Origin: a virus
Virus record (IMG/VR): IMGVR_UViG_3300035146_000036
Length of the DNA stretch: 64,000 nt
Direction: 5' to 3' (one strand)
Below the pieces are notes generated by a model. It was not told where the DNA came from, made no database searches, and saw only the letters and a program-made list of their open reading frames with translations. Positions within the stretch are counted from its first letter, which is position 1, and every line of letters begins with the position of its first letter. The position numbers and the translations under genes are program-made. This document shows positions 17,233-62,641 of the stretch, piece after piece.

Positions 17233-17276
17233 TAGTTTGTTCCTTTCTGTCGAAATCTTATCGACTATCTATATGA

Positions 17277-17361
17277 ATATTAACATTATGATAAAGTTTG
17301 TCAACTTTTTTGATAAAAAAATGCAAAAGTGTTGATAATAATAGTATAAAAGTGGTATTAT
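17277..17361. promoter_or_regulatory. Divergent promoter region (minus-strand TTGACA-16-TAATAT; plus-strand TTGATA-18-TATTAT)
   Basis: Hexamers read directly; located between the minus REC operon and the plus RHH gene. Confidence 0.45.
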
Positions 17362-46357: not shown

Positions 46358-46576
46358 ATGAATATTAAAAAAAATGAATGCATGTTTTGTGGAGAAAGGA
46401 TTTTAGAAGGAGTATTCTGCTCAGAGCAATGCAAGAATTTAGCCATTTCTGAAGCTGAGGATATAGACAGGAGAATTTATTTTCTTTTCGGAAAAAAATC
46501 AAATTATTGTCAAAGAAAACTTACTAAGATGTTTGACGAGATGTCAACTAAAGAAGAAAGAGGAGAAGATCAATGA
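46358..46576 (+). CDS. Small zinc-binding protein (MNIKKNECMFCGER...)
   Basis: Start ATG lies in the second copy of a 15-bp tandem duplication; CxxC...C..C. Confidence 0.4.
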   Translation: MNIKKNECMFCGERILEGVFCSEQCKNLAISEAEDIDRRIYFLFGKKSNYCQRKLTKMFDEMSTKEERGEDQ

Positions 46577-47601
46577 AAAAAGTAGAGTTATCATGGAGTG
46601 AGGGTGATACAGATGTCATTATTTTGGTGGATGATGATCCGCTGAAAATTCTGACGTATGAATTTGACTCGGATGCCGTGCATGATTTTTGTATAGCAGG
46701 GCAACTATATTATCGGTCAAAATCTGGGTTATCTGGGGCGGGTTGGGTTCCTGCCAATGATGTCTTAAAGTTGGGATGGTATCGCGTAGACATTCCTAGG
46801 CAATCTCCCGTTAATGTTGCATCAATTGGGGATGGTCTTTATATGTGGATCCCAATTCGGGGTCACAAGGGGATAGATAAAAATTATCCAGTAGTTATAT
46901 CAGACCGGTTAGACAAAGTATGGTTTTTACCAGTGAATTTTGTGCAACGCAACATTTCTTCCATCATCCAAAGTCTCGATGTCGCAATGTCGAATGATTG
47001 TTTGACCGCAAAACAGATTCCATTTACTTGGCTTGTGCCTGAGCGACCACCATTGCTTGAAGTTCGACGCTTCGATACTAACGAAAATAACGAATTAGTG
47101 GATGTATCTTATGAGTGTACTTTATATACGATGGAATCTACTGCTTCAAGACCTTCAATTAGTAGATTTCTTAATTTGGAAGAATATACCATTCCTACTC
47201 ATCAATGGTTGGGAGAACTTGCTAGGCCGCAAACAACGTGGATGAAAAATTTAGGTATTTATCAAGTCTTAGATGACCAGTGGGTTGTAGTTGGAAAAGA
47301 AGGCTTGATAGAGCATACTCTTTCATCGGACCCTCGAATGATAGATGGCGGGGAGATGTGTCATGGGTGGGCATTCGAAGGCGATGGTTTAGTTTGGCGT
47401 AGTACTTTTGATGGTATAAACACTAATATTTATGCCATAAAAGAAATTCCTAGTAGCCGCATTTCTGATGTGCATGATGTGCAGAATGATAATGATGAGG
47501 AATATATAGCGCATGAAATTACCATTAGCGAATATCAGTGGAAAGTGATGACGTCACAGGATCGTCATGCCATGATGGATAAAAACTTAAAAAAAAGTTG
47601 A
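46573..47601 (+). CDS. Hypothetical protein (342 aa)
   Basis: ORF with 4-nt overlap to the upstream gene. Confidence 0.45.
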   Translation: MKKVELSWSEGDTDVIILVDDDPLKILTYEFDSDAVHDFCIAGQLYYRSKSGLSGAGWVPANDVLKLGWYRVDIPRQSPVNVASIGDGLYMWIPIRGHKGIDKNYPVVISDRLDKVWFLPVNFVQRNISSIIQSLDVAMSNDCLTAKQIPFTWLVPERPPLLEVRRFDTNENNELVDVSYECTLYTMESTASRPSISRFLNLEEYTIPTHQWLGELARPQTTWMKNLGIYQVLDDQWVVVGKEGLIEHTLSSDPRMIDGGEMCHGWAFEGDGLVWRSTFDGINTNIYAIKEIPSSRISDVHDVQNDNDEEYIAHEITISEYQWKVMTSQDRHAMMDKNLKKS

Positions 47602-47655
47602 CAAAGCATTTTTGAGGTCTTAAAATCAGTATAGATGCTCAACAAGATGTTGAGC
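47599..47655 (+). promoter_or_regulatory. Sigma70-type promoter (TTGACA-16-TAAAAT) followed by stem-loop CTCAACAAGATGTTGAG
   Basis: Near-identical copy at 49313-49369. Confidence 0.6.
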
Positions 47656-47670
47656 GAAAGGAGAAGAAAG

Positions 47671-47991
47671 ATGAAAAACCTGATAGGGTATGAGGCAATT
47701 GATTTCAAGCGTAGTAATTCAGATTCAGTGCTCTGCAAATATGCAGACCCCATAGAAGACGCGCGTTATGACATCTCAGTAGCAGATGCTGAGGAAATCG
47801 CCAGCGAAGACCCCAGTCTCATCTTTATCTATGTCAAGCCAACGGAATTTCTAGTTTATATGGATGCGCCTCGACATTGGGCTGTAGCCGCTGTCGATCT
47901 GGATGATGATTTGAGTTGGGCGCGAAATTGTAACGGGGTATTCAAAAACCCCAAAGACGCGGAAGCCCATGCTGCGCGATTGAATGGATAG
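47671..47991 (+). CDS. Hypothetical protein
   Basis: ATG after AAGGAG; ORF-track start at 47635 lies inside the stem-loop. Confidence 0.4.
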   Translation: MKNLIGYEAIDFKRSNSDSVLCKYADPIEDARYDISVADAEEIASEDPSLIFIYVKPTEFLVYMDAPRHWAVAAVDLDDDLSWARNCNGVFKNPKDAEAHAARLNG

Positions 47992-48075
47992 AATTGATCC
48001 CGTCTACCCGTTAGCAATGTCGGTGGAATGTCGGTGGAATGTAGGCCGATTCGGCCATAACAAAGGAGATAAACT

Positions 48076-48546
48076 ATGAAAATTTATGCAACAATGCCAA
48101 CATATAGCGTAGAAGAGGATTGGATTAAGGGTTTGCTACTATTCGGTTCAGATTACGCGCGTGCGTATCTGCGTGTGTATAAGAGTCGAGACGATAACTG
48201 GCACATGATAGGACATGAAGAAAAATCCTCTCTAATAGAAGAGAAAATGCCTTCTCCATCCGACGGCGGATGGCAGAATAAACCATATTTAGTTATGGCT
48301 CCTGATATTATGGCAGTGAAAAATGATGCGCTGGGACGAGTATGGCGAGCACATGAGGCGTATGAGAGTCGATCTCGTAATACGACGTTGGTTAGGTATC
48401 GAGGTGTCAGTAGCGATGTGTACGGCTACGAGTATGTCGAGCTTATAGTCGGCGAGAAATCATCATTCATAGATTTATCCATATGCTCAGAATGGTCCGA
48501 TGGCGATGTATCCTTTGAGGATATTATAGAGTTTTTATATCAATGA
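48076..48546 (+). CDS. Hypothetical protein
   Basis: ORF with AAGGAG RBS. Confidence 0.45.
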   Translation: MKIYATMPTYSVEEDWIKGLLLFGSDYARAYLRVYKSRDDNWHMIGHEEKSSLIEEKMPSPSDGGWQNKPYLVMAPDIMAVKNDALGRVWRAHEAYESRSRNTTLVRYRGVSSDVYGYEYVELIVGEKSSFIDLSICSEWSDGDVSFEDIIEFLYQ

Positions 48547-48589
48547 ACCAGATGATTAATTTTATTGGGATTGGGTAAATAAAAAGTAT

Positions 48590-49294
48590 TTGAAGATATT
48601 TTATTTTTTATTTATAATCTCTCTTATGAGAGAATTACTTGATCGATTAGAAGAAAAAATTGCAGATATCGAGGATTCTGGTCTTGGTGGAAAATATTTT
48701 GAAAAAATATTTGTAAAGGCGTTGAATCTAATCGGTATGGAATTTATTGCTAATATAGCAAGTGGACCAGGATGGGATATTCATACCAGAGGGGATAAAT
48801 GGTTGAAGTTGATATCTGATAAAGATGTAAATATTAAGGTTTGTGGAACTAAGTGGATGTTGTCTTCATCGGAGTTGGCAAAAATTTTGCCATGGGAAAA
48901 ATTACCGGATGATTATGACAGTTTAAAATACGAAAAAAAGATTAGGCGTATTTTTGCACAAAAAAAAGTATCACAAATATATTTTTTGAAGCCAAAAACT
49001 CTTGATATACAAAATCAAATTATAATGGCTACAGAAAATGAAGATATTGATATTCTTAACAAACTTGTTGTTAAGAAAAATTTTAGGATAGAAAAACTTG
49101 GTAGAGGGTATGAAATAAAAATTCTTGATAATGGAAAAAGAATTACATCTGTTGCCATTATAAAAGATGGAAAGGTTTTCATGAGGAGTGAAAAGCCACG
49201 TAGTATTGGAGGTACAAATACTGTTGCTTTTAGATCACCTACACCCAAAATCAGTAAAATATCTAGACCTATTACTAAAAAAGAAAAACTTTAG
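48590..49294 (+). CDS. Hypothetical protein (probable start at 48626, 8 nt after a TTGAAG-17-TATAAT promoter)
   Basis: ORF; promoter hexamers read directly. Confidence 0.4.
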   Translation: MKIFYFLFIISLMRELLDRLEEKIADIEDSGLGGKYFEKIFVKALNLIGMEFIANIASGPGWDIHTRGDKWLKLISDKDVNIKVCGTKWMLSSSELAKILPWEKLPDDYDSLKYEKKIRRIFAQKKVSQIYFLKPKTLDIQNQIIMATENEDIDILNKLVVKKNFRIEKLGRGYEIKILDNGKRITSVAIIKDGKVFMRSEKPRSIGGTNTVAFRSPTPKISKISRPITKKEKL

Positions 49295-49312
49295 AGAAAA
49301 CTTAAAAAAAAG

Positions 49313-49369
49313 TTGACAAACTATTTTTAATGTCTTAAAATCAATGTAGATACTCAACAAGATGTTGAG
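49313..49369 (+). promoter_or_regulatory. Sigma70-type promoter (TTGACA-17-TAAAAT) plus stem-loop, duplicate of 47599-47655
   Basis: About 50 nt nearly identical to the upstream copy. Confidence 0.6.
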
Positions 49370-49381
49370 GAGGAGACAATT

Positions 49382-51589
49382 ATGGTTATAAAAAACAAAT
49401 TTTCGAAACGTTGTGAGTGTTGTGGAGAGCAAGTTGGCGTGGGTGACGGTTTTGCTTTCGTTGAAAATGGTACTTGGCATACAGTTTGCAAATCAACAGC
49501 TTGTCATCGAAAACTTGGCGTAGACCAGAATAGAGATAATGTCCGTAAATTGACCGAGGATGGCAAGGTCATCATGGGGTATGACAAAAATGCTATTACT
49601 CTGTTGCGTTCTATGCCTGGGGCTCGATGGAATCCAGACGAAAAGCACTGGACAGTGAGTGTCAAGACTGAGGACTTGGATAGAGTCATCGAGATTGCTG
49701 ACCAACTAAAACTCGATGTTCCTGATAGTCTAAGGAAGCGTGCTTCAATCGGTACCGTAGCCTCTCAAGAAGCTGAAAAACGAGCTGAACGTGTCAGGGT
49801 TGACGGAAGTCCTCTTTATGATTTTCAGCGTGATGGAGTTAGATTTCTTGCTCTTCATAATCATGCGTTGATGGCTGATGATATGGGACTCGGGAAAACC
49901 GTTCAGGCTCTTGTTGCCATTCCTGAGAAATCAAGAGTTTTAGTTACTTGCCCTTCTGCTGTTAAATACAACTGGAGAGATGAGATTCAACTTTGGAGAC
50001 CAGATTATTCTATTAGGATAGTCAAGGGTAAAAAAGACGATAATATTGTCCCTAACGAGGGTGAGATAGTTATTGTCAATTATGATATTCTGCCCAAATG
50101 GTTGATGCCCACAATTGATAGTGGGAAAATAAATAAGAAGGGTGACCCGATTCTGGTTGCTGATATTCCATCAGACAAACGTTCTGGTTTGAGCGAGACA
50201 ATTGTTATTTTTGATGAAGGTCATCTTGCAAAAAATTACAAAGCTAAAAGGACACAAAAGGTTACACAATTATCAAAAAATGTTGCCAAGGTTTGGGTTT
50301 TGACTGGAACTCCGTTGATGAATCGACCATTTGATTTGTGGGGTGTTTTGTGTGCGTTTGGAATGTATCCTTTGGGTGGATTTAACAAGTTTGTTAATCT
50401 TTTCAATGGTTCATGTAGTAAGTACGGTGGGTATGAGTTTGGTCTTCCCACTCAGGAAGTTGTTGAGAGAATGAAGAGAGTTATGATTCGTAGACTCAAA
50501 AAAGACGTTCTCAAAGACCTTCCTCCTAAGACTTATCAGAGGATTGAGGTTGATTGTTCTAGTAGGTCTCTCAATAAGGAATTGAAAGAACTTGCTCAAG
50601 AAATTGCCGATGCTCAAGGAATCAATTTTGATGCAGATGATTTTTCAATGTTGGACCTTGATACAATCCCTGATTTTAATGCTTTTTCTCGAGTAAGGGC
50701 TTTGTTGGCTAAAGCTAAAATTCCTGCTATGTTGAATTTAATTGAAGAGCATGAGGAAACTGATACGCCAGTCGTTGTTTTTTCTGCTCATAGATCCCCT
50801 ATAGATGAGTTGGCTAGTCGTGATGGATGGGACGTAATAACCGGTGATACGTCTGCAGAGGATAGACAGAATGTCGTAAGGAGGTTTCAATGTGGCGAAT
50901 TGAAGGGTGTTGGTTTGACAATCAAGGCTGGGGGTGTTGGTCTTACTTTGACAAGGGCTTCTAATGCGATTTTTGTTGATCTTGACTGGACACCCTCTTG
51001 GAATATTCAGGCAGAGGACAGAATTTGCAGGATAGGTCAGAAGAGTAACAATGTGACTATCAAAAGGCTGGTTTCTTCTCATCCTCTTGATATTCACATT
51101 CAAAATATTATAGAGTACAAAGTCAAACTTGCCTATATGGCTCTTGATAATGATTATGTTTTCAAGGGTGGCCAAAAAGTTTCTAGTAAAAAGTCTGATT
51201 TTGTAGATCTCAAAGAGGAGAGTGATGAAGAGCTCTCGGAAAGGATTCGCAAAGCGGAGTATGAAGCCAATCGAGAGTATTACTCTCAGAAAATCAGGAG
51301 AGTGGCTGATCGGGAATCTGAGCGGGTTTCTCATGTGCCAGAACCTGAACTAACCGAGGAAAGGAAGAGCCTACTGAGGGGCGCTCTAGGCCATCTGTGT
51401 AGTGTTTGTGATGGGGCTTTTCTGAAGGATGGAATGGGATTCAATAAGCCTGATGCCTGTATTGGGCATTGGATGAATTCTATAGATATTGAAACGGCTG
51501 AAGATGATATTTATAGAGTGCTGGAAAGAATTCTTGTGAGATATCGAAAGACTCAACTTGCGGGTAAGTTTGATGGAATTTGGAGTTGA
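49382..51589 (+). CDS. SNF2-family helicase/ATPase with N-terminal Cys-rich zinc-finger-like region
   Basis: DMGLGKTVQ (motif I), IFDEGHLAKN (motif II), LTGTPLMNRPFDLW (III), GGVGLTLT (V), QAEDRICRIGQ (VI). Confidence 0.8.
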   Translation: MVIKNKFSKRCECCGEQVGVGDGFAFVENGTWHTVCKSTACHRKLGVDQNRDNVRKLTEDGKVIMGYDKNAITLLRSMPGARWNPDEKHWTVSVKTEDLDRVIEIADQLKLDVPDSLRKRASIGTVASQEAEKRAERVRVDGSPLYDFQRDGVRFLALHNHALMADDMGLGKTVQALVAIPEKSRVLVTCPSAVKYNWRDEIQLWRPDYSIRIVKGKKDDNIVPNEGEIVIVNYDILPKWLMPTIDSGKINKKGDPILVADIPSDKRSGLSETIVIFDEGHLAKNYKAKRTQKVTQLSKNVAKVWVLTGTPLMNRPFDLWGVLCAFGMYPLGGFNKFVNLFNGSCSKYGGYEFGLPTQEVVERMKRVMIRRLKKDVLKDLPPKTYQRIEVDCSSRSLNKELKELAQEIADAQGINFDADDFSMLDLDTIPDFNAFSRVRALLAKAKIPAMLNLIEEHEETDTPVVVFSAHRSPIDELASRDGWDVITGDTSAEDRQNVVRRFQCGELKGVGLTIKAGGVGLTLTRASNAIFVDLDWTPSWNIQAEDRICRIGQKSNNVTIKRLVSSHPLDIHIQNIIEYKVKLAYMALDNDYVFKGGQKVSSKKSDFVDLKEESDEELSERIRKAEYEANREYYSQKIRRVADRESERVSHVPEPELTEERKSLLRGALGHLCSVCDGAFLKDGMGFNKPDACIGHWMNSIDIETAEDDIYRVLERILVRYRKTQLAGKFDGIWS

Positions 51590-51592
51590 ATA

Positions 51593-52156
51593 ATGAAAAT
51601 TGATTTAAGTGGAAGAAATTTGCGAGGAGCCATTTTGGAAGGGGCTGACCTCGAAGGAGCCAATCTAAAAGGGGCTGACCTTGAAGGTGCCAACCTCAAA
51701 GATGCCTACCTAAAAGGAGCCAATCTAAAAAAAGCCAACCTTGAAGGGGCCAATCTAAAAGGGGCCTTCCTCGAAGGGGCTGACCTCGAAGGGGTTAAGT
51801 TCAAAGAAGCCAACCTCAAAGGGACCAATCTTGAGGGGGCCATCCTTAAATGGGCCAACCTAGAAGGTGCCAAACTCAAAGAAGCCAACCTAAAATTGGT
51901 CAACTTTGAAGGGGCAGACCTTAAAGATGCTAACCTTGAAGGGGCCAATTTTGAAAGTGCCAACCTCTACTTGGCCAATCTTGAAAGTGCCAACCTTAAA
52001 GGGGCCAAGTTTAAAAGGGCTTACTTGGAAGGAGTCAACTTTAAAGGGGCTTACCTGGAAGGGGCTGAATTGGAAAAGACAGATTTAAGTGGGATAAATT
52101 TAGAAGGGGCCTATCTCAAAGGGTCCAACCTCGAAGGAAGAAAAAATGAAAATTGA
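51593..52156 (+). CDS. Pentapeptide-repeat protein 1
   Basis: A[DN]L[EK]GA repeats throughout; starts [13 protein letters not shown]. Confidence 0.75.
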
Positions 52157-52784
52157 TTTAAGTGGAAGAAATTTGCGAGGAGCCAACTTCGAAGGAATTG
52201 ATTTGCGAGGTGCTAAGCTAGAAAGGACCAACCTTGAAGAAGCTAACCTCGAAGGAGCCAACCTAAAAGGGGCCAAACTCGAATGGACATACCTAAGATG
52301 TGCCAATCTTGAAGGGGCAGACCTTGAAAAGGCAGACTTTACAGGGGCCAATCTTGAAGGTGCTAACCTTGAAGGTACTGACCTCAAAGGGGCAGACCTA
52401 AGAGGTGCCAATCTCGAAAGGGTCAACCTCAAAATGGCCAACATCGAAGATGCCAACCTAAGATATGCCAATTTTAAAGGGTCAGACTTTACAGGGGCCA
52501 ACCTTGAAGGGGCAGACCTTGAAATGGCAGACCTCAAAAGGGCCAATTTAGAAATGGCAGACCTAAAAAGGGCCAATCTAGAAGGGGCCATCCTTAAATG
52601 TGCCAACCTTGAAGGAGTCAATCTAGAAGGAGCCAATCTAGAAGGAGCCAACCTCGAAGGGGCCAAAATTAAAGGGGCCTACCTCAAAGGAGCCAATCTT
52701 AAAGGAGCCAATCTTAAAGAGGTCGATCTAGAAGAGGTCGATCTAGAAGGGGCCAACCTCGAAGGGATAAAAAATGAAAATTGA
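52146..52784 (+). CDS. Pentapeptide-repeat protein 2
   Basis: Tandem paralog with same N-terminus; start overlaps the upstream gene. Confidence 0.75.
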
Positions 52785-53286
52785 TTTAAATGGAAGAAAT
52801 TTGCGGGGAGCCATCCTCAAAGGGGTCAACTTCGAAGGAGCCAACCTAAAAGGGGCTGACCTCGAAGGGGTTGACCTCGAAGAAGCTAACCTCAAAGGGG
52901 CCAATCTCAAAGGGGCCAATCTTGAAAGTGCCAACCTTGAAAGTGCCAATCTTGAAAGTGCCAACCTTAAAGGGGCCAATCTTAAAGGGGTCAACCTAAA
53001 AGGGGTTGGCCTCGAAGGGGTTGACCTAAAAGGGGTTGACCTCGAAGATGCCAATCTAGAATGGGCCTACCTTAAAGATGCCAATCTTGAAGGGGCCAAT
53101 CTCAAAGATGCCAACATCAAATGGGCTTACCTTGAAGGGGTCAATCTCAAAGATGCCAATCTTGAAAGTGCCAATCTTGAAAGTGCCAACCTTAAAGGGG
53201 CCAATCTTGAAAGTGCCAACCTTAAAGAGGTCAAGTTCAAATGGGCTGGCTTCGAAGGGGCCAACCTCGAAGGAACCAAGATATAA
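52774..53286 (+). CDS. Pentapeptide-repeat protein 3
   Basis: Tandem paralog. Confidence 0.75.
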
Positions 53287-53634
53287 AAATAAATATACTA
53301 AGTAGAGGAGAGATATTATGAAAAAGAAAAGATATCCTGAACCAACTATGCCTAAGCCTGATTTGGAGCAAATTGAGAGATGGGGTTTTTCTTCGGTTTG
53401 TGAAGCAACAGATGGATGTGTAGTGGAACCTGATGGTATATGTCCACATGGATATCCATCGTGGTTATTGTATCTTGGATATATATAGACAGCGAACTCG
53501 AGTTCGCAAAGAAGAAGATTAATATGGATATTTCTAAAATAATGATTGATACGACATATGAATCTATTATTTAGTTATTTGTATGAAAGATATGGATAGG
53601 AAATTATTGGAATATTTTTTATTTAAAAAAGTAC

Positions 53635-53662
53635 TTGACAACTGTATTTCCAATAATATATA
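53635..53662 (+). promoter_or_regulatory. Sigma70-type promoter (TTGACA-16-TATATA)
   Basis: Hexamers read directly. Confidence 0.45.
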
Positions 53663-53741
53663 TTCTCTTTACATCAAAAAAAGAGCTAAGATAATGGGGA
53701 GTCAATAAGTATATAGTGTTGACAAACTATTGGAGGTTAAA

Positions 53742-54014
53742 ATGGAAGAAAAAAGTGATGATTATTTGATTGGTGAATTGGAACGATTGAATATAACATT
53801 GGAAAGTATTTTAAATATTTTTCTATCTGATAATAATGTAGATATTACGAATGAAAAAAGTGATTCAGTTGTAGTTGATATTAAAAAAATTTGTAACGTG
53901 ATTCCTGTATGCAAAAATAGGATAGAGAAATTATCTCGTATTAATAGAGAACTCATGGCAAATATGTGTGCTATAGAAGAAATTGTTATGGGTAATGAAA
54001 ATCGAGATAGTTGA
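53742..54014 (+). CDS. Hypothetical protein
   Basis: ATG after GGAGG; ORF-track start is TTG. Confidence 0.4.
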   Translation: MEEKSDDYLIGELERLNITLESILNIFLSDNNVDITNEKSDSVVVDIKKICNVIPVCKNRIEKLSRINRELMANMCAIEEIVMGNENRDS

Positions 54015-54038
54015 CAATGTAGTTTTTTTGTGTATTAT
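54011..54038 (+). promoter_or_regulatory. Sigma70-type promoter (TTGACA-16-TATTAT)
   Basis: Hexamers read directly. Confidence 0.45.
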
Positions 54039-54221
54039 CTATGACTAGATAGTTGGCAAGATGCCAAAGAAAGGTTGATTTGATAATGAAAATTGATAAA
54101 TGTAAAGTTGCTTTTTCTATTAAACTAGATCCTAAAGTGGTCAGGGAAGCAGCGTTGAGATATCCTGATAAGACTGTTTTGGATGCTTTTTTTCTTATGG
54201 GGTTTTTTATGGGGGTATTGA

Positions 54222-54404
54222 ATGTTAGATAAAGAGGATAGAAATAGAATTGTAAATATGTTAGGTATGGTAGAGAAATTGTTTGATAATATTGCTATTA
54301 TTGCTGTTGATAAGACAGATGATTCTATTGTATATGGAATTAATTATGTTAAAGAGCAAGAGGAAGAGCAAGAGGATAAATTGAAGGGGGTAGAAACGGG
54401 GTAA
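54222..54404 (+). CDS. Hypothetical small protein
   Basis: ORF. Confidence 0.3.
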   Translation: MLDKEDRNRIVNMLGMVEKLFDNIAIIAVDKTDDSIVYGINYVKEQEEEQEDKLKGVETG

Positions 54405-54406
54405 AT

Positions 54407-54793
54407 TTGGAGGATGATATGGTATCGAAAGAAGAAATTGAAAGAGTGTGGAAGGATACTTATGATGCATATGAAAAATTTGTTGAGCTTGAGAATAAAA
54501 AGATAGAGCTTTTAAATAGTTATTACTCTGATAAATATGACCTAAAGCTTGGAGAAAGTGAAGTTTATCAGGTTTTTTCAAATAAAAAGATTCTTGTTCA
54601 TGGTTTTTGTCAAGATAATGGTATCGATGATAAGCCTTCTATTATAGGCAGATTGATATTGCCTTTTGGAGTTTCGAAACAGATAAAAACATTTTCTCCT
54701 GATGCTTGGCAGACAGATAGCGAAAGGAGAGGAGAGGTTAACGGAAATATAAAAAATTCTGATAATTTTGTTAATGTAAATGGAAATTTTTAA
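54407..54793 (+). CDS. Hypothetical protein
   Basis: ORF with GGAGGA RBS. Confidence 0.4.
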   Translation: MEDDMVSKEEIERVWKDTYDAYEKFVELENKKIELLNSYYSDKYDLKLGESEVYQVFSNKKILVHGFCQDNGIDDKPSIIGRLILPFGVSKQIKTFSPDAWQTDSERRGEVNGNIKNSDNFVNVNGNF

Positions 54794-54811
54794 GATTTTT
54801 TCTATATTTTG

Positions 54812-54840
54812 TTGACAAACGTTTTTTGTTTTCATATATT
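54812..54840 (+). promoter_or_regulatory. Sigma70-type promoter (GTTGACAAAC-17-TATATT) followed by hairpin CCTCGA-ggga-TTCGAGG at 54857-54874
   Basis: Hexamers read directly. Confidence 0.5.
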
Positions 54841-54906
54841 ATATAATATGATGATGCCTCGAGGGATTCGAGGTATAGATAGTATTTTTGAAAAGGAGCG
54901 TTTGTT

Positions 54907-55923
54907 ATGGAAAAGATTTTATGGGTTTTTGTATATTTTATATCTTTGGGGTGTGCTGCTGAACCAGATGCATTTTTGGACGTCGATGCTGGATATATTT
55001 GGATAGATTCTGCTTATATTTACAGTAACAGTAATGTTTTTGATACTGGAAATGAGTATGTTGATGCAGATGCCGATTCTGATAGTGATACAGATGCCGA
55101 TACAGACGCTGATGCGGACACCGATACTGATACAGATGCAGATACTGATGCAGATTCTGATACAGATACTGATACAGATAGCGATTCTAATACAGATAGC
55201 GATTCTGATACAGATAGCGATTCTGATATGTATATAGATACTGATACAGATATCAATATTGAATGTGAAAGTGAATGTCTAAGTAGTTGTTCTTCTTTAG
55301 GTGGAATTCCTGTTAGTGGTACATGTCCTAGAGGTTTGAAATGTTGTAATATGAATGGGTATGTGGATAGTGATGCTGATACAGACTCAGATGCGGACAC
55401 GGACACGGATGCAGACTCAGATTCAGACTCAGATGCGGACACGGATGCAGACTCAGATACTGATACGGATACTGATTTTGATACGGATTTTTATGGTTTA
55501 ATGGATACTGAAACAGAAGAATCAGTATGTTTGGATAATGGATATGAATTCCCTGATGATTCTGGGATATGTTGGTATTATAGGTCAGATCTTCCAGAGG
55601 AGAGGTCAGATTGTATAAGTGTATGTCATAGTTTTGGCCTTGAATATTCTGATGATACTGAAAATGTGATTAAGGATAATCATAAGAATTGTATATCTAT
55701 AGTCCAAGGATTGGGGTTAGAAGGTGAAACTGGATATTGGTATGCTTCGATTGATTCTTGTGGAATAGGAGACCGTACATGGAATGTTGGAGCAGCTGGG
55801 TGTACATATCACAATGATTCTAGTGATATGGTTTTTCATCAGATACTTGTGGTTGTTTGTAATGGTGGGGCAATCATGTCAAATCGTAGGTCAGTAGATC
55901 CTAGATTATGTGCTTGTGAGTAA
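54907..55923 (+). CDS. Secreted/lipoprotein-like protein with Asp-dipeptide (DA/DS/DT) repeat blocks and Cys-rich modules
   Basis: N-terminal hydrophobic signal ending ISLGCAA; two (D-A/S/T)n blocks; 6-Cys block C-x3-C-x3-C-x11-C-x5-CC. Confidence 0.55.
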
Positions 55924-55926
55924 TAT

Positions 55927-56448
55927 ATGGATGTAGTAGCAAAGTATAAGTTAATTAGGAAGTTGAGAAAGATCGTTGAGAATGAAGGATCGTCTTTGTT
56001 TGAAAGAGAGAATGCCAGACTTAGGATAGTTGAGATAGAGGAAAAAATAAAAGAATATTTAGATTCAGTACAAAAAAAGGCAAAGGATAGAATGAAGCAG
56101 GATGTTTCAAGTGTCCATTTTAAAAAGCCTAACAAAAAGAATATTTTTTTTAATTTTAAAAAAAAGTTGGATGATGGAGTTAGTATACCAGTTTTTCCTG
56201 TTGATTTAGCGTTTGGATGGAATAGTGAATCTCTGGTTGAGATATCTACTTTTTTTGATGATGTTAATAAGGTTATTTTGATGGAATGGAAATGTCCATG
56301 TTGTGGGAGACATGTCGAAAGGATGATTACAAAGAAACATAGAGCAAGATTAATGGGTAAACCTGATGGAATTAAAAATTTTATTGAAGGAATAAGGGTC
56401 GGTTCAATAAACCAATTATGTGATGAATGTTATGAAAAATATAGATGA
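55927..56448 (+). CDS. Hypothetical protein with C-terminal zinc ribbon
   Basis: CPCCGRH...CDEC. Confidence 0.45.
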   Translation: MDVVAKYKLIRKLRKIVENEGSSLFERENARLRIVEIEEKIKEYLDSVQKKAKDRMKQDVSSVHFKKPNKKNIFFNFKKKLDDGVSIPVFPVDLAFGWNSESLVEISTFFDDVNKVILMEWKCPCCGRHVERMITKKHRARLMGKPDGIKNFIEGIRVGSINQLCDECYEKYR

Positions 56449-56460
56449 AAGGCACGTGAT

Positions 56461-56787
56461 ATGTTGATTGATGATTATGATAAGGCTAATGATATTTTGG
56501 GTCCAAAAACAACTTCTGAAAAAGTATTAGTGTCTTCTTTGAAGACTATTGGTTTCGGAAGAGCGATGCAATTGGTTCAAATAAATTGGGGACTTTATAA
56601 CGAATCTGGAATAGATATGTTTTGTAAACCAGGTTCTGAGTTTGTTGTTGGACCATGTAAAGCCGAAGTGGTGGCATGTGGATGTGATGATCCAGTTGAT
56701 TGCGAATGGTGTGCTGGTACTGGGTGGCTTACAAAAAAAGTGAAGAAGATGAAAGATGCAATTAGTATGGTTAAAAGATGCAATTAA
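56461..56787 (+). CDS. Hypothetical Cys-containing protein
   Basis: ORF. Confidence 0.4.
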   Translation: MLIDDYDKANDILGPKTTSEKVLVSSLKTIGFGRAMQLVQINWGLYNESGIDMFCKPGSEFVVGPCKAEVVACGCDDPVDCEWCAGTGWLTKKVKKMKDAISMVKRCN

Positions 56788-56798
56788 TATGGTGAAAA

Positions 56799-57041
56799 AT
56801 GTCAATACGAAAAAAAGATATAGGAAAAATTGATTTAAGATTTTTTGTGTTGTTGTTTATAATAAGTGGTGCAGAACTTTTTGAATTCAATTTTGATGAA
56901 TCAATAGATGGATTATTGTTTTTATTTTCGATTGCTATGATTGGAATTGAATTGATTTGGAGGTTAATTAGAAAGATTATATTATATAGAGATAGGACTA
57001 TTTTAAAGGTTGTTGAAGATACGGATAGATATTTGAAATAA
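56799..57041 (+). CDS. Small membrane protein
   Basis: Two hydrophobic segments. Confidence 0.4.
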   Translation: MSIRKKDIGKIDLRFFVLLFIISGAELFEFNFDESIDGLLFLFSIAMIGIELIWRLIRKIILYRDRTILKVVEDTDRYLK

Positions 57042-57104
57042 AATTGTGGTTTAGTCAGGTTGGTGACGAACTCGAGTTCATTAAGGTTGTAAGGTGTTGG
57101 AAAG

Positions 57105-59993
57105 ATGAAAAATGAAGTTGTTAAAGTAAAATTTAATGGTAATGAAATTGTAGTTTTTTTAGAAGAAGAAGATGTTTGGGTTTCTGTTTGGAGTGTTTGT
57201 GATGGAATTGGGATTGATAAAACGGGTCAAAAAAGAAGATTATTAACTTACGACATGGTGACATGGAAGACCTATGAAGATTCAAATGGAATTTTGAAAG
57301 ATGTTTTTTTAATTAATTTGAATGCACTTAATGATTGGTTGTATTCTATTAATAGATGGAGAATATATCCATTATCAAGGAAGAAATTGGATATATATTG
57401 TAGTGGATTATTTGATGAAATAAAAAAAAATATTGATTTTATTAATACTAACGATGATGAGAATATATACGAAATTATTGATATAGAGTTTTTAGATAAT
57501 AAGATTCAATTTATTATAGATGAATACGAAAATATATGGATTTCTGTTGAACAAATATGTGAGCATTTAAATATTGATTTGGATTGGTATATGCAAGCAT
57601 TGGTTGATTTAGCAGATTTAGCAGATCTAGGATATAATGTTTGTACGTTTAAAGTCTTTGATTCAGATGGTGAAAAATATGATGTTTTTATGATTCATAT
57701 TAATTCTGTAAAAGCATGGTTAAATGCAATACGTTTTAATGATATTAAATTTGAATTTAGGGGGATATTAACTAGATATAGAGAAGAAATAGTTGATTTT
57801 GTAATGAATGCTATTGTTGATTTTGATACTATTTCAGTATTTGGAAATGAAACTATTAATAACAATATGGTTTCTGATGAAAACAAAACAATAGAGAATG
57901 TTATAGAGAAGGAGGATACTCAAAATATTGAGTTAGGAAGAAGGATAGATGATAATAAATATGAAGCTATAGAGATTTATTTTTATGGTGGAATCATTGA
58001 ATTGGTTGAAGATGAAAATAATAATATTTGGATAAATGTTAAAAAAATATGTGATATGTTTGGAATAAGTTATTCTGAGCAACATATTAAACTTGAAAGT
58101 ATAGATTGGAAAAATTGGGTAGTTTGGAAGATTGTTAATAAGCAATTTATGATTAATTTAGATTGTTTTAAAGATTGGTTGTTAAAGATTGAACCTAATA
58201 TAGTTAGTTTAAAATCAAGACATATATTGGTGAAGTATCAGAAAGAGATTGATTCAGATATAATAAGAAAAGTATTTCGTGAAGAAATAGAGGGGGGAAA
58301 TAAAAATAATAAAGTTGATAAAGCGGATTTTTATGTTTCAAAAACAAAAAAGATAAAAAAATTAAAAAAAGATATAGATGATAATTATAAGTGTTATGTC
58401 GTAGATGTTGGTTCTAATAATAAAAAGGTTGAAGTTGTTAGAGATGGAAATGGTGGTATTTGGATATATACAAAGAGAATTTGTAAGATATTAGGTATTG
58501 ATTATAGAAATCATATGATGAAGTTAGCAAGTAAGGATTGGGCAAATTGGAAGATTATTTTTGCAGTTCATAATAATGGTAAGAAACATAAATGGTTTAT
58601 GCTTCATATAGATTGTTTTGATAAATGGATAAATAGTATTAAGAAAAATATTTTAAAAACAAAAGATAATATGTCATGGGGTGATTTTGTTGAAATAAAA
58701 AAGTATAGTTATATGATAAAGAAGGGTGTCGATAGAGCAATAAGAGAAGAAAATACAACTGTTGTTGAAGAGCATTTTGAAGGAGAAGAATTAGTTGGTA
58801 GAACTGTATATGAGACTGATGAAGAGATAGATAAATCAAAGGATGTTGTGAAATGCGACACCCTTGAAGAAGATGAAGAGCAGAGAGATGGGGGGGTGAA
58901 ACGCCCCCTCATCGAAAAAGAAGATGAAGAATACAAGGATGTCGTGAAATGCGACACCCTTGAAGAAGATAAGGAAGAAAAGATGAAGGATGAGAAGATG
59001 AGTAAAGATATAATGAATGATATAGTAAAAATGTTTGAGTATGAAGGTGAACCGTTGACGGCTCTTACTTACAAAGGACAGCCAGCAGTCATTGCTAAAG
59101 AGTTTGGAAAGTTTTTAGGATATGCAAAAGATGGATCAAAATTGGTAAGTCTTATCAATGATGAATGGAAAAAGTCTTTTGAGTCAGGAAAGCATTTTGT
59201 TGTTTTGAAGGATAAAGAACTTAAACAATTTAAGGAACTTATGAAAGTAAACCCGTCATACGGGTTTAGTCGAGCACCCCATATAATGCTTCTTTTTAGA
59301 AAAGGAATGTATAAGACAGCTTTCAAGAGTGGGAAGGAAAGAGCAGAGCCGTTAATAGATTTTGTTGTAGACGAGGTGTTTCCTCAGTTGGAGAAGTACG
59401 GAAGCTATGACCCTAATAGGATAGCAGATTCCGGGTTAGTGAAGAAGGGAGTTTGGATACCTGAGATGTCGTCTGAAGCTCTTGAAGTACTGCTGAGAGA
59501 GAGGAAGGGGCGTGAGCTTGCCGAGAAAGATAGAGATGGGGCTATAGTATTAGTTAGGGAGCAGAAAGAGAAAATAGCAGAGATGAAGGAGGATATTAAG
59601 GAGTTTCGAGCAAGAGAGGGAGGAATAACTATAGAGGAGTTTGCACGTGTAGTATGGATTGGTGGTGTTAAGTACAATAGAGATCAGATGTATGCTCTTT
59701 TGAGGGAATTAGGTTTTTTAATTGAATGTGGTGTAGGTTATAATAAGCCACGTAAAAAATATGTTGATGACAAAAAATGGTTTGATACACAGATAAGAAT
59801 AGGTAGTGATGGTTATATAAGGAGAAATGGAATTGCATTGATTTTTCCGGAAGGTGAGGATGGAGTGATTAAAGAGATGAGGAGACATCCTGAATTTTTT
59901 GGTAAAGTTATTAAGCATAGGGATAGAAAATATATAGGTGGTGAGCAAACATCTTTTGATTGGGTTGATAATAAGAATAAGACGGTAAAGTAA
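57105..59993 (+). CDS. Large antirepressor-like protein with about five tandem Bro-N/KilA-N-like modules and a C-terminal ANT/KilAC-like region
   Basis: Recurrent module [IV]W[IV]x[VT]xxIC..[LF]GI[DS] (DVWVSVWSVCDGIGID; NIWISVEQICEHLNID; NIWINVKKICDMFGIS; GIWIYTKRICKILGID); KDVVKCDTLEED duplicated. Confidence 0.5.
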   Translation: MKNEVVKVKFNGNEIVVFLEEEDVWVSVWSVCDGIGIDKTGQKRRLLTYDMVTWKTYEDSNGILKDVFLINLNALNDWLYSINRWRIYPLSRKKLDIYCSGLFDEIKKNIDFINTNDDENIYEIIDIEFLDNKIQFIIDEYENIWISVEQICEHLNIDLDWYMQALVDLADLADLGYNVCTFKVFDSDGEKYDVFMIHINSVKAWLNAIRFNDIKFEFRGILTRYREEIVDFVMNAIVDFDTISVFGNETINNNMVSDENKTIENVIEKEDTQNIELGRRIDDNKYEAIEIYFYGGIIELVEDENNNIWINVKKICDMFGISYSEQHIKLESIDWKNWVVWKIVNKQFMINLDCFKDWLLKIEPNIVSLKSRHILVKYQKEIDSDIIRKVFREEIEGGNKNNKVDKADFYVSKTKKIKKLKKDIDDNYKCYVVDVGSNNKKVEVVRDGNGGIWIYTKRICKILGIDYRNHMMKLASKDWANWKIIFAVHNNGKKHKWFMLHIDCFDKWINSIKKNILKTKDNMSWGDFVEIKKYSYMIKKGVDRAIREENTTVVEEHFEGEELVGRTVYETDEEIDKSKDVVKCDTLEEDEEQRDGGVKRPLIEKEDEEYKDVVKCDTLEEDKEEKMKDEKMSKDIMNDIVKMFEYEGEPLTALTYKGQPAVIAKEFGKFLGYAKDGSKLVSLINDEWKKSFESGKHFVVLKDKELKQFKELMKVNPSYGFSRAPHIMLLFRKGMYKTAFKSGKERAEPLIDFVVDEVFPQLEKYGSYDPNRIADSGLVKKGVWIPEMSSEALEVLLRERKGRELAEKDRDGAIVLVREQKEKIAEMKEDIKEFRAREGGITIEEFARVVWIGGVKYNRDQMYALLRELGFLIECGVGYNKPRKKYVDDKKWFDTQIRIGSDGYIRRNGIALIFPEGEDGVIKEMRRHPEFFGKVIKHRDRKYIGGEQTSFDWVDNKNKTVK

Positions 59994-59994
59994 G

Positions 59995-60318
59995 ATGAAA
60001 GTTATAGAGTATGAAGAGTGGTTAAAAGAAGCATCAAAGCGATATCCGGATAAGAATATTGTTTTTACTTGTCCTGTATGTGGATATAAGCAGTCTTTAA
60101 AGGAATTGAAGGAGGCAAAGGTACCAGAAGGTTCTTGGGGGTTTTCATGTATTGGAAGGTATATAGGTGGGCGAGATGCTATTAAAGAAAAAGGAAAGGG
60201 ACCATGTAATTATGCTGGAGGAGGTCTTTTTCAACTGAATCCTATTCATGTGAAAGATGAAGAGGGTAATATTCATCAATTGTTTGATTTTGCGGATGAC
60301 CCACTTAAGGAAAAATAA
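59995..60318 (+). CDS. Zinc-ribbon protein
   Basis: CPVCGY...C..C. Confidence 0.45.
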   Translation: MKVIEYEEWLKEASKRYPDKNIVFTCPVCGYKQSLKELKEAKVPEGSWGFSCIGRYIGGRDAIKEKGKGPCNYAGGGLFQLNPIHVKDEEGNIHQLFDFADDPLKEK

Positions 60319-60857
60319 TGAAAAAGAATGAAGAAAATGTGGAGATAGAAGTACTTGAGTTGTCTCCTGAAGATTCACTTATTTTTGCAGAAGCCATATT
60401 GAATCCAAGAGAGCCATCTGATGTTTTGAGACGAGATTTTGATCTTTACAAAAAGATGGTAATTAGTGACCAGGATGATATAGGTGAAACGAACTCGAGT
60501 TCGCCAAAAAAAGGATTATGGATGTTAAAGGATATTGTTACACCAAATGATGTGGTTGATATATTAAATAAGGTTTTAGCTATAGATTCATATGCAATAA
60601 ATCAACTTATTAATATGCGTGTTATTTGTAATAAGGATTTAGCAGATATACCAAATATACAAGTTGGAAAGAGACCAGAGGGTGGATATAGAGTAGGCAT
60701 ATTGGGTATTTTGAATGGTGTATTTGGTAAAGATGATACAACTGGATTTGGTTGTATATGTGCTAATATAAATAAAGAGACAGGTTTGGTTGAGAGATTT
60801 TCAATTTTGAATGAAAATGATTTTGAAGATATAAAAAACAATAATACGATTGCCTGA
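60318..60857 (+). CDS. Hypothetical protein
   Basis: ORF; contains a copy of the CGAACTCGAGTTCG palindrome. Confidence 0.4.
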   Translation: MKKNEENVEIEVLELSPEDSLIFAEAILNPREPSDVLRRDFDLYKKMVISDQDDIGETNSSSPKKGLWMLKDIVTPNDVVDILNKVLAIDSYAINQLINMRVICNKDLADIPNIQVGKRPEGGYRVGILGILNGVFGKDDTTGFGCICANINKETGLVERFSILNENDFEDIKNNNTIA

Positions 60858-60869
60858 AATTGAAAATAG

Positions 60870-60899
60870 TTGACAAACTGGTTGTTACGTGGTTATATA
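60870..60899 (+). promoter_or_regulatory. Sigma70-type promoter (GTTGACAAAC-17/18-TATATA)
   Basis: Hexamers read directly. Confidence 0.5.
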
Positions 60900-60943
60900 A
60901 GGCATAACTAATTGGTTAGTTGTATACAAAGAGGAGATAAAAG

Positions 60944-61255
60944 ATGAATGTTTTTTTAGTTTTTGAGATGGTTCCTGAAGATATGAAAGCATATTTTATT
61001 CAGAATGTATCTGATGAAGATCTTGATATCCTAGATAAAGCAAATGGTAAGTATATAAATACAGATTCGGATTCTGAAGCGGTATCAGAGATTTTGGATT
61101 TTGTTTCTGAAGACATATATTGTGAAGACCCAGATAAGGAGACTAACGGTAAATGGTTGAAAGATGAAGTAAAATATTCAGGGAAGAAAGGACCCTTTTT
61201 TGATGCTAGTGAACATCGTATTGATAGAGTTTATATGTGTGGAATGATAATGTGA
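60944..61255 (+). CDS. Hypothetical acidic protein
   Basis: ORF with AGAGGAG RBS. Confidence 0.45.
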   Translation: MNVFLVFEMVPEDMKAYFIQNVSDEDLDILDKANGKYINTDSDSEAVSEILDFVSEDIYCEDPDKETNGKWLKDEVKYSGKKGPFFDASEHRIDRVYMCGMIM

Positions 61256-61338
61256 TAGATTATGAAGTTTATTTTAGGTTAATAAGGAAAGGTTGTTTGT
61301 AATTTTTTATTTGGATAAATTTTAACAATAGTGAATAA

Positions 61339-61755
61339 ATGATAAGAAAAATGGAAAAGAAAAAAAGTTGGTTTTGGTTAATAGTTTTATTTATAATAAT
61401 AAGTATAGGCATTATGCTTTGGTCTGTAATATATCATTATTCGATATTGCCACATATGCCAGTTTCAGAAAGATTTGAAAAGCTTAGAGAAATAGAACGT
61501 TTAGAAATTAAATATGCACAAATAAATAATGAAATATGTGAAGATTTAATTTCTAAATTAAGATTTCTAGATAATGTAATTGATGCATGGACAAAACAAA
61601 AAAATAATTACGATGAATTGAAAGATATAAATAAAGATATATATAAATATTTTGAAGAAGATCATACTTTAAGAGATAGTATAAGAAATGCTAAATCAAG
61701 AAGACTTTTAATTTTGGATGAAATATCTAAAAATAATTGTTCTGTTGATTATTAA
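61339..61755 (+). CDS. Hypothetical membrane-anchored protein
   Basis: N-terminal TM helix WFWLIVLFIIISIGIMLW. Confidence 0.45.
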   Translation: MIRKMEKKKSWFWLIVLFIIISIGIMLWSVIYHYSILPHMPVSERFEKLREIERLEIKYAQINNEICEDLISKLRFLDNVIDAWTKQKNNYDELKDINKDIYKYFEEDHTLRDSIRNAKSRRLLILDEISKNNCSVDY

Positions 61756-61770
61756 ATATTAAAAAAACAG

Positions 61771-61843
61771 TTGACAAAAATTTGTCAATCTATATTACAC
61801 TAGAACAAGGAGAGGATATATATAGGATATATATGTTCTAGAC
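61771..61843 (+). promoter_or_regulatory. Palindromic TTGACAAAAATTTGTCAA element plus 8-bp inverted repeat (CTAGAACA...TGTTCTAG) enclosing the RBS of the next gene
   Basis: Read directly. Confidence 0.45.
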
Positions 61844-62095
61844 ATGTGGGAGATTGACATGGTTAAAGAGTTAAAAGAGAAGAAAATCAGTATTTTAGGA
61901 GAGATAGGTTCTCTTTCAAACATATTAAAAAAAGATGTTTCTAAGGATGTTATTGGATACATTAATAGCCGTTTGGCGAAGTTAAAGGCTGAATTAGACA
62001 ATGTTGAGTTTCTTTTGAAAGAGACATGTGTTACAAATAATTACAGTGTAGCGAGAAAAAGTTCAGGTTTTGTTTATTTTAATGTTTATGGCTGA
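61844..62095 (+). CDS. Hypothetical coiled-coil protein
   Basis: ORF. Confidence 0.4.
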   Translation: MWEIDMVKELKEKKISILGEIGSLSNILKKDVSKDVIGYINSRLAKLKAELDNVEFLLKETCVTNNYSVARKSSGFVYFNVYG

Positions 62096-62101
62096 TTTTT
62101 G

Positions 62102-62158
62102 TTGACAAACGGTTTTGTAGGGTTAGAATAGAGGATAGATACTGAGCAAGATGCTTAG
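62102..62158 (+). promoter_or_regulatory. Sigma70-type promoter (TTGACA-16-TAGAAT) plus stem-loop CTGAGCAAGATGCTTAG
   Basis: Third copy of the promoter plus stem-loop cassette, with compensatory stem changes. Confidence 0.5.
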
Positions 62159-62187
62159 GAAAGGAGAAACAAAAAGGAGAGTTAGAT

Positions 62188-62469
62188 ATGAATCCATATA
62201 TGGAAGAGTCAACAATTAAAGAGTTATGGTGTGATTCTTGTTTGGAGACAACATACCATGAATGGATTAATGGAAGATGGGTTTGTGTAAATAGTTTTAA
62301 ACATGACGATATATGTGAAAAACGTCATAGAGAATATGTGTTGCAACTTGCTTATGATAGAGGATTAAGGGCGAATACTTTTGCTACTAATGATGAATTG
62401 TCTGTTTTGGGATATGCAAGAGAATGGGATAGAGGGTTTAAAGAGAGAAAGACAGGAGTTAGATTATAG
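62188..62469 (+). CDS. Hypothetical Cys/His-containing protein
   Basis: ORF with AAGGAG RBS. Confidence 0.45.
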   Translation: MNPYMEESTIKELWCDSCLETTYHEWINGRWVCVNSFKHDDICEKRHREYVLQLAYDRGLRANTFATNDELSVLGYAREWDRGFKERKTGVRL

Positions 62470-62546: not shown

Positions 62547-62559
62547 AAATTTAGTTTAA

Positions 62560-62631: not shown

Positions 62632-62641
62632 TTAGGAGGTA

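Follow-up and report, generated by a model that had tools for sequence, protein, structure and literature searches.

The virus record IMGVR_UViG_3300035146_000036 was analysed over a stretch of 64,000 nucleotides (hereafter the window), in which a unit of about 90 nt, composed of a promoter, a leader hairpin, a Shine-Dalgarno (SD) sequence and a start codon, is repeated in front of unrelated genes. The unit reads gTTGACAAAy, 16-17 nt, TAnnnT, 5-7 nt, TAGAT, a 7-nt arm, AAGAT, a second 7-nt arm, aAAGGAG and ATG; the arms form a stem of 6-7 bp, the hairpin with its loop AAGAT spans 17-19 nt, and A-rich tracts lie upstream of the promoters. An earlier reading of this DNA (the original prediction) had described three copies with a conserved loop and compensated stem differences, and had likened them to the promoter-early stem-loop (PeSL) cassettes of T4-like phages. 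These three are all present, and a repeat search returned 90% identity over 73 nt between the first two (47582-47654 and 49297-49369), but their number had been set too low. By printing the sequence after every TTGACA, scanning for AAGAT-loop hairpins and running a covariance model without filters, we found six copies in the window, five of them complete (four on the plus strand, one on the minus strand) and one promoter-less. Over the 64 kb the model scored the complete copies at 37-46 bits and the next-best match that is not a copy at 16 bits (E 0.12). The copies are the following.

Copy 0, 46524..46575, plus strand: promoter-less leader (covariance-model match 24.2 bits, E 9e-4), with no -35/-10 at the usual distance; cTAAGAT 46524-46530; GTTTGAC 46531-46537; loop GAGAT 46538-46542; GTCAACT 46543-46549; SD GAGGAG 46560-46565; ATG 46573 of the open reading frame (ORF) 46573-47601
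Copy 1, 47582..47673, plus strand: complete unit (46 bits; promoter 11/12; -10.8 kcal/mol, z -5.3); A-rich tract from 47582; -35 TTGACA 47598-47603; -10 TAAAAT 47621-47626; TAGAT 47632-47636; GCTCAAC 47637-47643; loop AAGAT 47644-47648; GTTGAGC 47649-47655; SD GGAG 47660-47663; ATG 47671
Copy 2, 49297..49384, plus strand: complete unit (37.5 bits) with an SNF2-family helicase gene behind it; -35 49313-49318; -10 49336-49341; TAGAT 49347-49351; ACTCAAC 49352-49358; loop 49359-49363; GTTGAGG 49364-49370; SD GGAGGAG 49369-49375; ATG 49382
Copy 3, 62087..62190, plus strand: complete unit (43.5 bits); -35 62102-62107; -10 TAGAAT ending at 62129; TAGAT 62136-62140; ACTGAGC 62141-62147; loop 62148-62152; GCTTAGG 62153-62159; SD of the unit AAAGGAG 62160-62166; second SD AAGGAG at about 62174-62180; ATG 62188 of a 93-aa ORF
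Copy 4, 54011..54088, plus strand: complete unit (38.9 bits), with an orthologue in the related locus L152 at 2587 (promoter TTGACG); -35 54011-54016; -10 TATTAT ending at 54038; TAGAT 54046-54050; AGTTGGC 54051-54057; loop 54058-54062; GCCAAAG 54063-54069; weak SD AAAGG; ATG 54086 of a 47-aa ORF
Copy 5, 17230..17320, minus strand, in the tail-gene block: complete unit (43.2 bits); -35 TTGACA 17304-17299; TAGAT 17271-17267; AGTCGAT 17266-17260; loop AAGAT 17259-17255; TTCGACA 17254-17248; ATG 17232

The hairpin sequence is CTCAACAAGATGTTGAG in copies 1 and 2 and CTGAGCAAGATGCTTAG in copy 3. The stop codon of ORF 46573-47601 sits within the -35 box of copy 1 (TTGAca), and at copy 2 the stretch common to relatives begins at about 49281, upstream stop codon (TAG) included. 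On the plus strand of 45-64 kb, six sigma-70-type matches score best (11/12), and all four plus-strand promoters of the units belong to them. AAGAT hairpins by themselves are not enriched in the window (11 versus 10.1 in shuffles), so that the non-random signal is the fixed combination of promoter, TAGAT, hairpin and SD. A search of the 64 kb with Rfam 15 returned only three tRNAs above the gathering threshold, and the best match over copy 1 reached 17 bits against a threshold of 109, which points to no known RNA family.

Related loci (L numbers) were gathered by exact-pattern scans of viral contigs, metagenomes and species-representative genomes and by a probe with the gene adjoining copy 5. 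About 35 were recovered, being metagenomic phage contigs of 33-50% G+C: L128 is 98% identical to the window, L144, L152 and L155 are 89-99% identical and L129, L130 and L126 about 70%, the others being more distant, to 50% G+C. The covariance model found 50 copies in the related loci, whereas seven loci that served as controls or were judged to be chance gave none; 45 copies, including those of the window, are distinct, and 41 of these 45 have TTGACA or TTGACT at the standard distance. With the helicase as probe only distant relatives were obtained, and one of them, L119 (53% identity, a 392-kb contig of 46% G+C), is without the unit. A loose pattern (TTGACA N27-29 TAGAT N7 AAGAT) gave at least 118 loci in viral contigs, all but one judged to be chance, with pair counts centred on 1-3 of 6; this collection was reused as null set. 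Pattern matches in L143, L148, L150, L159, L161 and L162 (Yeguia, Sporolactobacillus and other contigs) were treated as chance as well, because they show neither a hairpin nor a model match. Units are also carried by L158, L160 and L163 (CAYUTF01 contigs, from a metagenome-assembled genome labelled 'uncultured archaeon'); these contigs are near-identical to L135, L137 and L152 and are probably mis-binned phage DNA.

Two copies have distinctive genes behind them. Directly 3' of the gene driven by copy 3 lie tRNA-Met, -Thr and -Ile (window 62471-62993), an array whose content differs among close relatives (seven tRNAs in L152, 9571-12596; four in L144, 8114-9722). Behind copy 5 follows a two-gene minus-strand unit (16665-17232) of a 69-aa Cys-rich ORF and a 116-aa ORF, moron-like in being embedded in plus-strand tail genes and kept in L126, L128, L129 and L130; in L128 a 180-nt insertion is found at its 3' end (window 17016/17018).

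Pairing and conserved positions of the leader hairpin

As the metagenome and genome search patterns specified linear motifs only, pairing was not selected for, and the related loci could be compared for it directly. At least five of the six stem pairs are formed in 41 of 47 motif-selected instances from related loci, against 5 of 117 unrelated contigs among the loose-pattern matches listed. In a set of 29 distinct cores (24 of them picked by motif alone) pairing cells amount to 84%, where shuffles give 66% and slid registers no more than 49%, and double-change cells number 51 compared to 12 expected, a value reached by 0 of 500 shuffles; the double changes occur at six of the seven pairs of the proposed structure. 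RNAalifold independently returned the same helix, with double changes at five of seven pairs, and added a loop A-U pair that closes an AGA triloop. The sole loop variant, GAGAT (A to G), which is found in L129, L130 and copy 0, retains this closing pair as G.U.

The copies have no fewer than ten different stem sequences between them. At the copy 5 site, where L128 is identical to the window and L129 and L130 have the same stem with loop GAGAT, the stem AGTCGAT/TTCGACA of the window is replaced in L126 by AGCCAAC/GTTGGCA, with TAGATA and AAGAT unchanged. The differences between copies 1 and 2 on the one hand and copy 3 on the other, which the original prediction had taken for compensating ones, are indeed compensated (C-G to G.U, A-U to G-C). 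When counted in the pair tables, G.U cells number about 25 and A.C cells 0; since the complementary strand of such stems would not fold, this argues for a sense-strand RNA rather than a duplex operator. Taken together, the covariation in relatives indicates that the hairpin is a sense-strand RNA element kept by compensatory change, and thereby sustains the proposal that the promoter is coupled to a transcribed leader hairpin selected for its RNA structure.

This pattern bears on a possible role at the DNA level, one form of which is an operator at +1 to +25 for a repressor of early promoters. The position of the element over the predicted start site, where repressors often bind, and the direct repeat that TAGAT and AAGAT form 12 bp apart would suit such an operator. 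A duplex operator would, however, conserve the sequence of its half-sites, whereas here the arms vary freely and only their pairing is kept, and the frequent G.U and absent A.C combinations allow only one strand to fold.

In a hairpin-anchored alignment TAGAT is conserved at 92-100% and C-AAGAT-G at 89-100% across phages of 33-50% G+C, while the arms vary; both motifs are the most conserved parts of the unit, exceeding the -10 and matching or exceeding the -35. The promoter itself (TTGACA, 16-17 nt, TAnnnT) is conserved over 38 copies. Because the -10 ends 5-7 nt upstream of TAGAT, transcription is predicted to start at the A or G of this motif, which would leave the hairpin, at a fixed 11-13 nt after the -10, only 4-5 nt from the 5' end. 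In 39 of 45 copies the SD comes 0-6 nt behind the stem; from stem to ATG the distance is mostly 15-17 nt. Single-sequence folds range from -6 to -11 kcal/mol, with the SD unpaired. Copy 3 keeps the SD of the unit, at least 22 nt from its ATG, although the gene is served by a second SD. Two promoter-less copies, at 46524 in the window and at 652 in L141, where the palindrome CGAACTCGAGTTCG stands in place of the promoter, have retained TAGAT or a near variant together with the hairpin; the motif is therefore probably not kept for initiation alone. An upstream mini-ORF was discarded as explanation, since copy 1 has its three leader ATGs in one frame and copy 2 does not. Likewise discarded was base pairing between the loop or TAGAT and either the 3' end of 16S rRNA or the leader, as inspection showed no complementarity.

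The geometry also separates the hairpin from that of a true PeSL, in which the stem-loop would act as terminator or attenuator of transcription arriving from upstream. PeSL stem-loops are G/C-rich (GGGG...CCCC), occupy five positions relative to the -35 and -10, among them one just 3' of the -10, and were shown to terminate transcription (PMC2839356); the composite layout of both elements is the same. The stem of 6-7 bp at -6 to -11 kcal/mol described here is of mixed composition, keeps a constant place behind the predicted start and has purines (GAAAGGAG) 3' of it instead of a T tract, and no terminator was called at any unit. A PeSL-type terminator is consequently very improbable.

Gene content around the units

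From about 45 kb onward the window contains small ORFans, an SNF2-family helicase, three tandem pentapeptide-repeat genes and an Ant/KilAC-type protein. The genes around and behind copies 0 to 2 are:

46573-47601, plus strand: ORF between copy 0 and copy 1, 342 aa, no family match
47671-47991, 48076-48546 and 48590-49294, plus strand: ORFans between copies 1 and 2, no Pfam or PHROGs match
49382-51589, plus strand: SNF2-family helicase gene behind copy 2 (SNF2-rel_dom, 2e-32)
51593-53286: three pentapeptide-repeat genes in tandem (Pfam Pentapeptide, 2.6e-76 for the first), with a 15-nt periodic repeat signal

Gene content varies between close relatives at the elements that flank these genes, as had been anticipated. 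In L133, L138 and L151 the match to the window breaks off at 46533, a breakpoint that coincides with copy 0, and is taken up again at 47581, where the sequence shared at copy 1 starts; these loci are without ORF 46573-47601 and have a single unit instead, where the window has copies 0 and 1 flanking the ORF. In L151 this single unit runs directly into a pentapeptide-repeat gene, so that about 5 kb of the window is skipped, and the single pentapeptide genes of L126, L156 and L141 each have their own unit as well; these pentapeptide-repeat proteins may be DNA-mimic early proteins. Behind units of the copy 3 type four different ORFs are found. At this site L144 has the same sequence as the window as far as ATGAA and an unrelated one beyond it, and L152 and L139 part from the window directly after AAAGGAGAAAYAAAAA, with a different ORF beginning right after the first SD, a junction that explains the double SD of copy 3 as its scar. 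Between L091 and L127 (about 96% identical) a replacement has its left edge within the hairpin, after CAAGATGT (...AAGATGT). L155, which shares 96% identity with the window over the helicase, has five changes in copy 2 that are packed in the part from spacer to TAGAT and that equal the version of L151 at five of five and that of copy 1 at four of five positions, which amounts to a conversion patch between copies; at copy 1 its homology to the window stops at 47626, inside the unit. A further break in L144, at 60935, is the 3' end of the promoter-leader at 60870, which has a different hairpin.

The breakpoints located at units or leaders of the window are thus 46533|47581, 47626, 62178, 62192 and 60935. 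Among 32 distinct breakpoints, 8-9 fall in the AAGAT units, which make up less than 2% of the compared sequence, and 3 in other promoter-leaders. Within the unit the junctions have no single place: they occur at the 5' edge, at the -10, in the loop, behind the SD and behind the ATG, as homologous exchange would produce and a recombinase with a fixed site would not. As far as these alignments can tell, genes are repeatedly swapped in and out at the units in this phage and its relatives. The original prediction had, more specifically, regarded copies 1 and 2 as the boundaries of an exchangeable block lying mostly in a GC-richer segment. Gene content does vary at both units, but no relative was seen to swap the block as one unit, and it varies internally, with breaks at 47822-47859, 48044-48062 and 48544 in L133, L138 and L155. 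Likewise, G+C is about 45% over 47.6-48.6 kb but about 29% over the third gene (48.6-49.3 kb).

PeSL cassettes were described in T4-like phages by Arbiol et al. 2010 (PMC2839356) and Comeau et al. 2014 (PMC4122927), and in the literature searched we found such cassettes described for T4-like phages only. The likeness extends to the intergenic unit of about 100 nt, the upstream stop codon in an A/T-rich tract, the strong sigma-70-like promoter, the stem-loop with G.T pairs, the SD and the ATG; to the repetition in variable early regions before ORFans; and to indel and replacement junctions between close relatives that are scattered inside the unit, loop included. Two cassettes flanking an ORFan where a relative has a single one, as seen here for ORF 46573-47601, is even the very pattern that defined PeSLs. 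A further trait of PeSLs is that excised mini-circles form during infection, as detected by inverse PCR. The unit is nevertheless not a PeSL, because its hairpin is (by prediction) transcribed, is fixed in position, is not terminator-like and is constrained in its loop sequence; moreover, unlike in PeSLs, the stem covaries while the loop and the 5' TAGAT are invariant. Hence the analogy holds for the architecture and for the role as exchange point, and fails for the hairpin.

The scattered junctions also bear on the second form of a DNA-level element, an attC-like single-stranded hairpin for a dedicated recombinase. Integron attC sites have RYYYAAC...GTTRRRY cores, form single-stranded DNA structures of 50-150 nt with extrahelical bases and are recombined by IntI at a fixed point, and the units share with them that hairpins defined by structure, with variable sequence, flank gene cassettes. 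The core is fitted by the CTCAAC/GTTGAG subfamily, and the junction of L091 and L127 falls directly after ...AAGATGT. On the other hand, most stems do not fit the attC core, the hairpin measures only 17-19 nt, the crossovers are distributed over the whole unit, and no integrase or recombinase domain was found with Pfam and PHROGs in 48 early ORFs of the window, which is a partial genome. In either form, repressor operator or recombinase site, we consider a DNA-level element quite improbable.

Possible role of the unit

That the stem covaries while loop and 5' TAGAT are invariant suggests a role that is exerted at the RNA level and is sequence-specific. The reading that seems probable, if only just, is that the unit is a portable early-gene cassette of which the hairpin, with its AGAU motifs, is read by one trans-acting factor, recombination being a side effect. 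A near-consensus promoter of the host type (sigma-70/sigma-A) would drive the leader hairpin and a strong SD before many unrelated early genes; no sigma factor was found by Pfam or PHROGs in the genes of the units and the 48 early ORFs. The hairpin with its invariant motifs would be the recognition site of the factor, an RNA-binding protein or ribonuclease of phage or host origin which would treat all these early mRNAs alike, either by protecting or defining their 5' end or by sitting beside the SD and so shutting translation off at the end of the early phase. The cassettes, being direct repeats of about 90 nt scattered through the early region, would supply the homology for insertion, deletion and exchange of the genes behind them, and would convert one another.

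A comparable control is known from the early mRNAs of T4, in which RegB cleaves GGAG in SD sequences and RegA represses, both at unstructured sites, with structure protecting against RegB (PMC3014915). The proposed role resembles theirs in that one factor acts on a short motif shared by many early translation-initiation regions and ends the early phase, and differs in that the shared feature is a hairpin with AGAU motifs. The SDs of the units do not fit the RegB consensus GGAGRAYARAA (PMC3014915), and the window yielded no homologue of RegA or RegB. In a bolder form, which we hold as possible but tentative, hairpin and AGAU motifs would together be the operator of a new post-transcriptional regulon, in which a dedicated phage protein or endoribonuclease would set a uniform, protected 5' end on transcripts from the own promoter or from read-through and would later switch the early class off, the unit doubling as the vehicle by which genes join the regulon through recombination.

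Several points weigh against a factor-read cassette. No candidate for the binding protein or ribonuclease was found with Pfam and PHROGs in the 48 early or small ORFs, mostly ORFans of a partial genome. The strong promoters at 53635, 54812, 60870 and 61771 have no AAGAT hairpin (two carry different hairpins), so that early expression does not require the element. Recognition of the invariant motifs could take place on DNA, as initial transcribed sequence or as a direct repeat WAGAT-N7-WAGAT, with the stem serving a separate purpose, and the 5'-terminal placement of the hairpin is predicted from promoter geometry only. Finally, counts of double-change cells overstate the number of independent events because copies share descent, and the excess of breakpoints is only modest compared to intergenic junctions, as the early region is mosaic throughout.

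Part of the same evidence could be accounted for by a passive 5' stabiliser or insulator, in which hairpin and strong SD would block 5'-end-dependent decay and keep the SD unpaired whatever gene follows, in the absence of any factor that reads the loop; the conservation of TAGAT and AAGAT would then be due to promoter escape, or to common descent and gene conversion. Gram-positive leaders of this kind are the 5' stem-loop with ribosome-binding site of aprE, the STAB-SD of cryIIIA and the ermC leader (reviewed in PMC3997798). With these the unit shares a stem-loop near the predicted 5' end followed by a strong SD, which is unpaired in all folds and is retained in copy 3 even though it is unused for initiation; the unrelated leader hairpins of promoters 54812 and 60870 fit this view too, and the conversion seen between copies could homogenise loops. 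Yet the known stabilisers are individual gene leaders with no particular loop requirement, whereas here a repeated family has an invariant loop and 5' motif, its own promoter and many genes and phages to its account. The stems have turned over completely while loop and TAGAT stayed invariant from 33 to 50% G+C and before non-orthologous genes, and conversion that homogenised loops would homogenise the flanking stem arms as well. Moreover, the predicted 4-5 unpaired 5' nucleotides starting with AG would be a good substrate for a Bacillus-type RppH (PMC3997798). For these reasons we consider a purely passive stabiliser unlikely.

The factor-read cassette was also weighed against an antitermination site. 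In the nut site of phage lambda, the boxB hairpin has a GNRA-like pentaloop, lies near boxA on the transcript and serves antitermination by N. A nut-like hairpin would recruit an N-like protein, or act on RNA polymerase itself, and so permit terminator read-through. The short hairpin with conserved small loop immediately 3' of early promoters reproduces the boxB layout, and copy 3, which drives a small ORF and a tRNA cluster, heads a long, structured transcription unit. The 5' tail of about 5 nt and the SD and ATG that follow at once nevertheless leave no room for a boxA-like element, and none is present; the loop AAGAU/AGA is not a GNRA-like pentaloop; and at least six sites occur in 64 kb, each before its own gene, unlike the one or two nut sites of an operon. 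Over 45-64 kb there is no excess of terminator-like sites (6 versus 8.3 expected), and none follows a unit. A nut-like function therefore seems improbable.

Judged on sequence, the novelty lies in a promoter-leader cassette with a covarying, loop-constrained RNA stem-loop, PeSL-like in its layout and in its part in genome evolution. If this is true, the PeSL idea of cassettes that express acquired genes and supply homology would extend beyond T4-like phages to an unrelated uncultured clade, in a form in which the stem-loop is an RNA element and not a terminator. The motif would be a new, compact RNA of about 36 nt with strong covariation, absent from Rfam and from the deposited phages searched; it would mark early genes in metagenomic phage contigs, imply a factor that reads the AGA loop and permit annotation of early promoters and early ORFans (probably for host takeover or anti-defence). 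The unit may also serve as a ready-made promoter, leader and ribosome-binding-site part for low-GC hosts.

The carrier phage and other elements nearby

The window has a G+C content of 34.5% and nearly all its genes on the plus strand. Its myovirus tail genes are:

9908-12703: tail sheath
18601-21675: tape measure
25162-27342: baseplate wedge

The sheath matched 2314 phage records, every one at less than 60% identity (top: Bacillus phage BCD7, 33%), and megablast of 46.5-51.6 kb and blastn of the unit against 50,697 deposited phages gave no match. By these comparisons, the carrier of the unit is an uncultured myovirus clade without a close deposited relative. Two other genes contain direct repeats. 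The gene at 57105-59993 encodes a 962-aa protein with P22_AR_N/Bro-N and Ant/KilAC-type anti-repressor domains and has a 46-nt direct repeat at 58834/58930, and ORF 24342-24695 in the baseplate region holds three 65-nt direct repeats (24381-24667, 83-89% identical, spaced by 108-114 nt), which indicate a repeated protein segment.

The perfect 14-nt palindrome CGAACTCGAGTTCG constitutes a second repeat family, with ten copies compared to 0.04 expected (plus strand; 6584, 8697, 15320, 18576, 24699, 40161, 43246, 53493, 57067 and 60490). It lies 10-35 nt upstream of the start codons of mostly structural (late) genes, is invariant in sequence and does not covary; it could be a middle or late promoter, a regulator site or an RNA processing hairpin. 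In relatives it stands just upstream of units in L136 and L156, and in L147 the variant CGAACTGGAGTTCG follows the AAGAT hairpin and supplies GGAG.

Near-consensus TTGACA promoters without the AAGAT hairpin lie on the plus strand at 53635, 54812 and 60870. The second of these is followed by the hairpin CCTCGAGGGATTCGAGG and then TATAGATAG, and the third has AACTAATTGGTTAGTT in its leader, so leader hairpins may be a general habit of the early transcripts of this phage. The palindrome TTGACAAAAATTTGTCAA (61771-61788) makes up two -35 boxes that overlap and diverge, and may be a bidirectional promoter or an operator; it marks the 5' edge of a segment, and the boundary of that segment (61754-61761) is where five relatives show a breakpoint. 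L127 (6573-6920) and L091 (5640-5987, minus strand), from a related lineage of phages, encode a phage transfer-messenger RNA with tag peptide VRHNDSQVWAEAA and its own TTGACA promoter, adjoining two copies of the unit.

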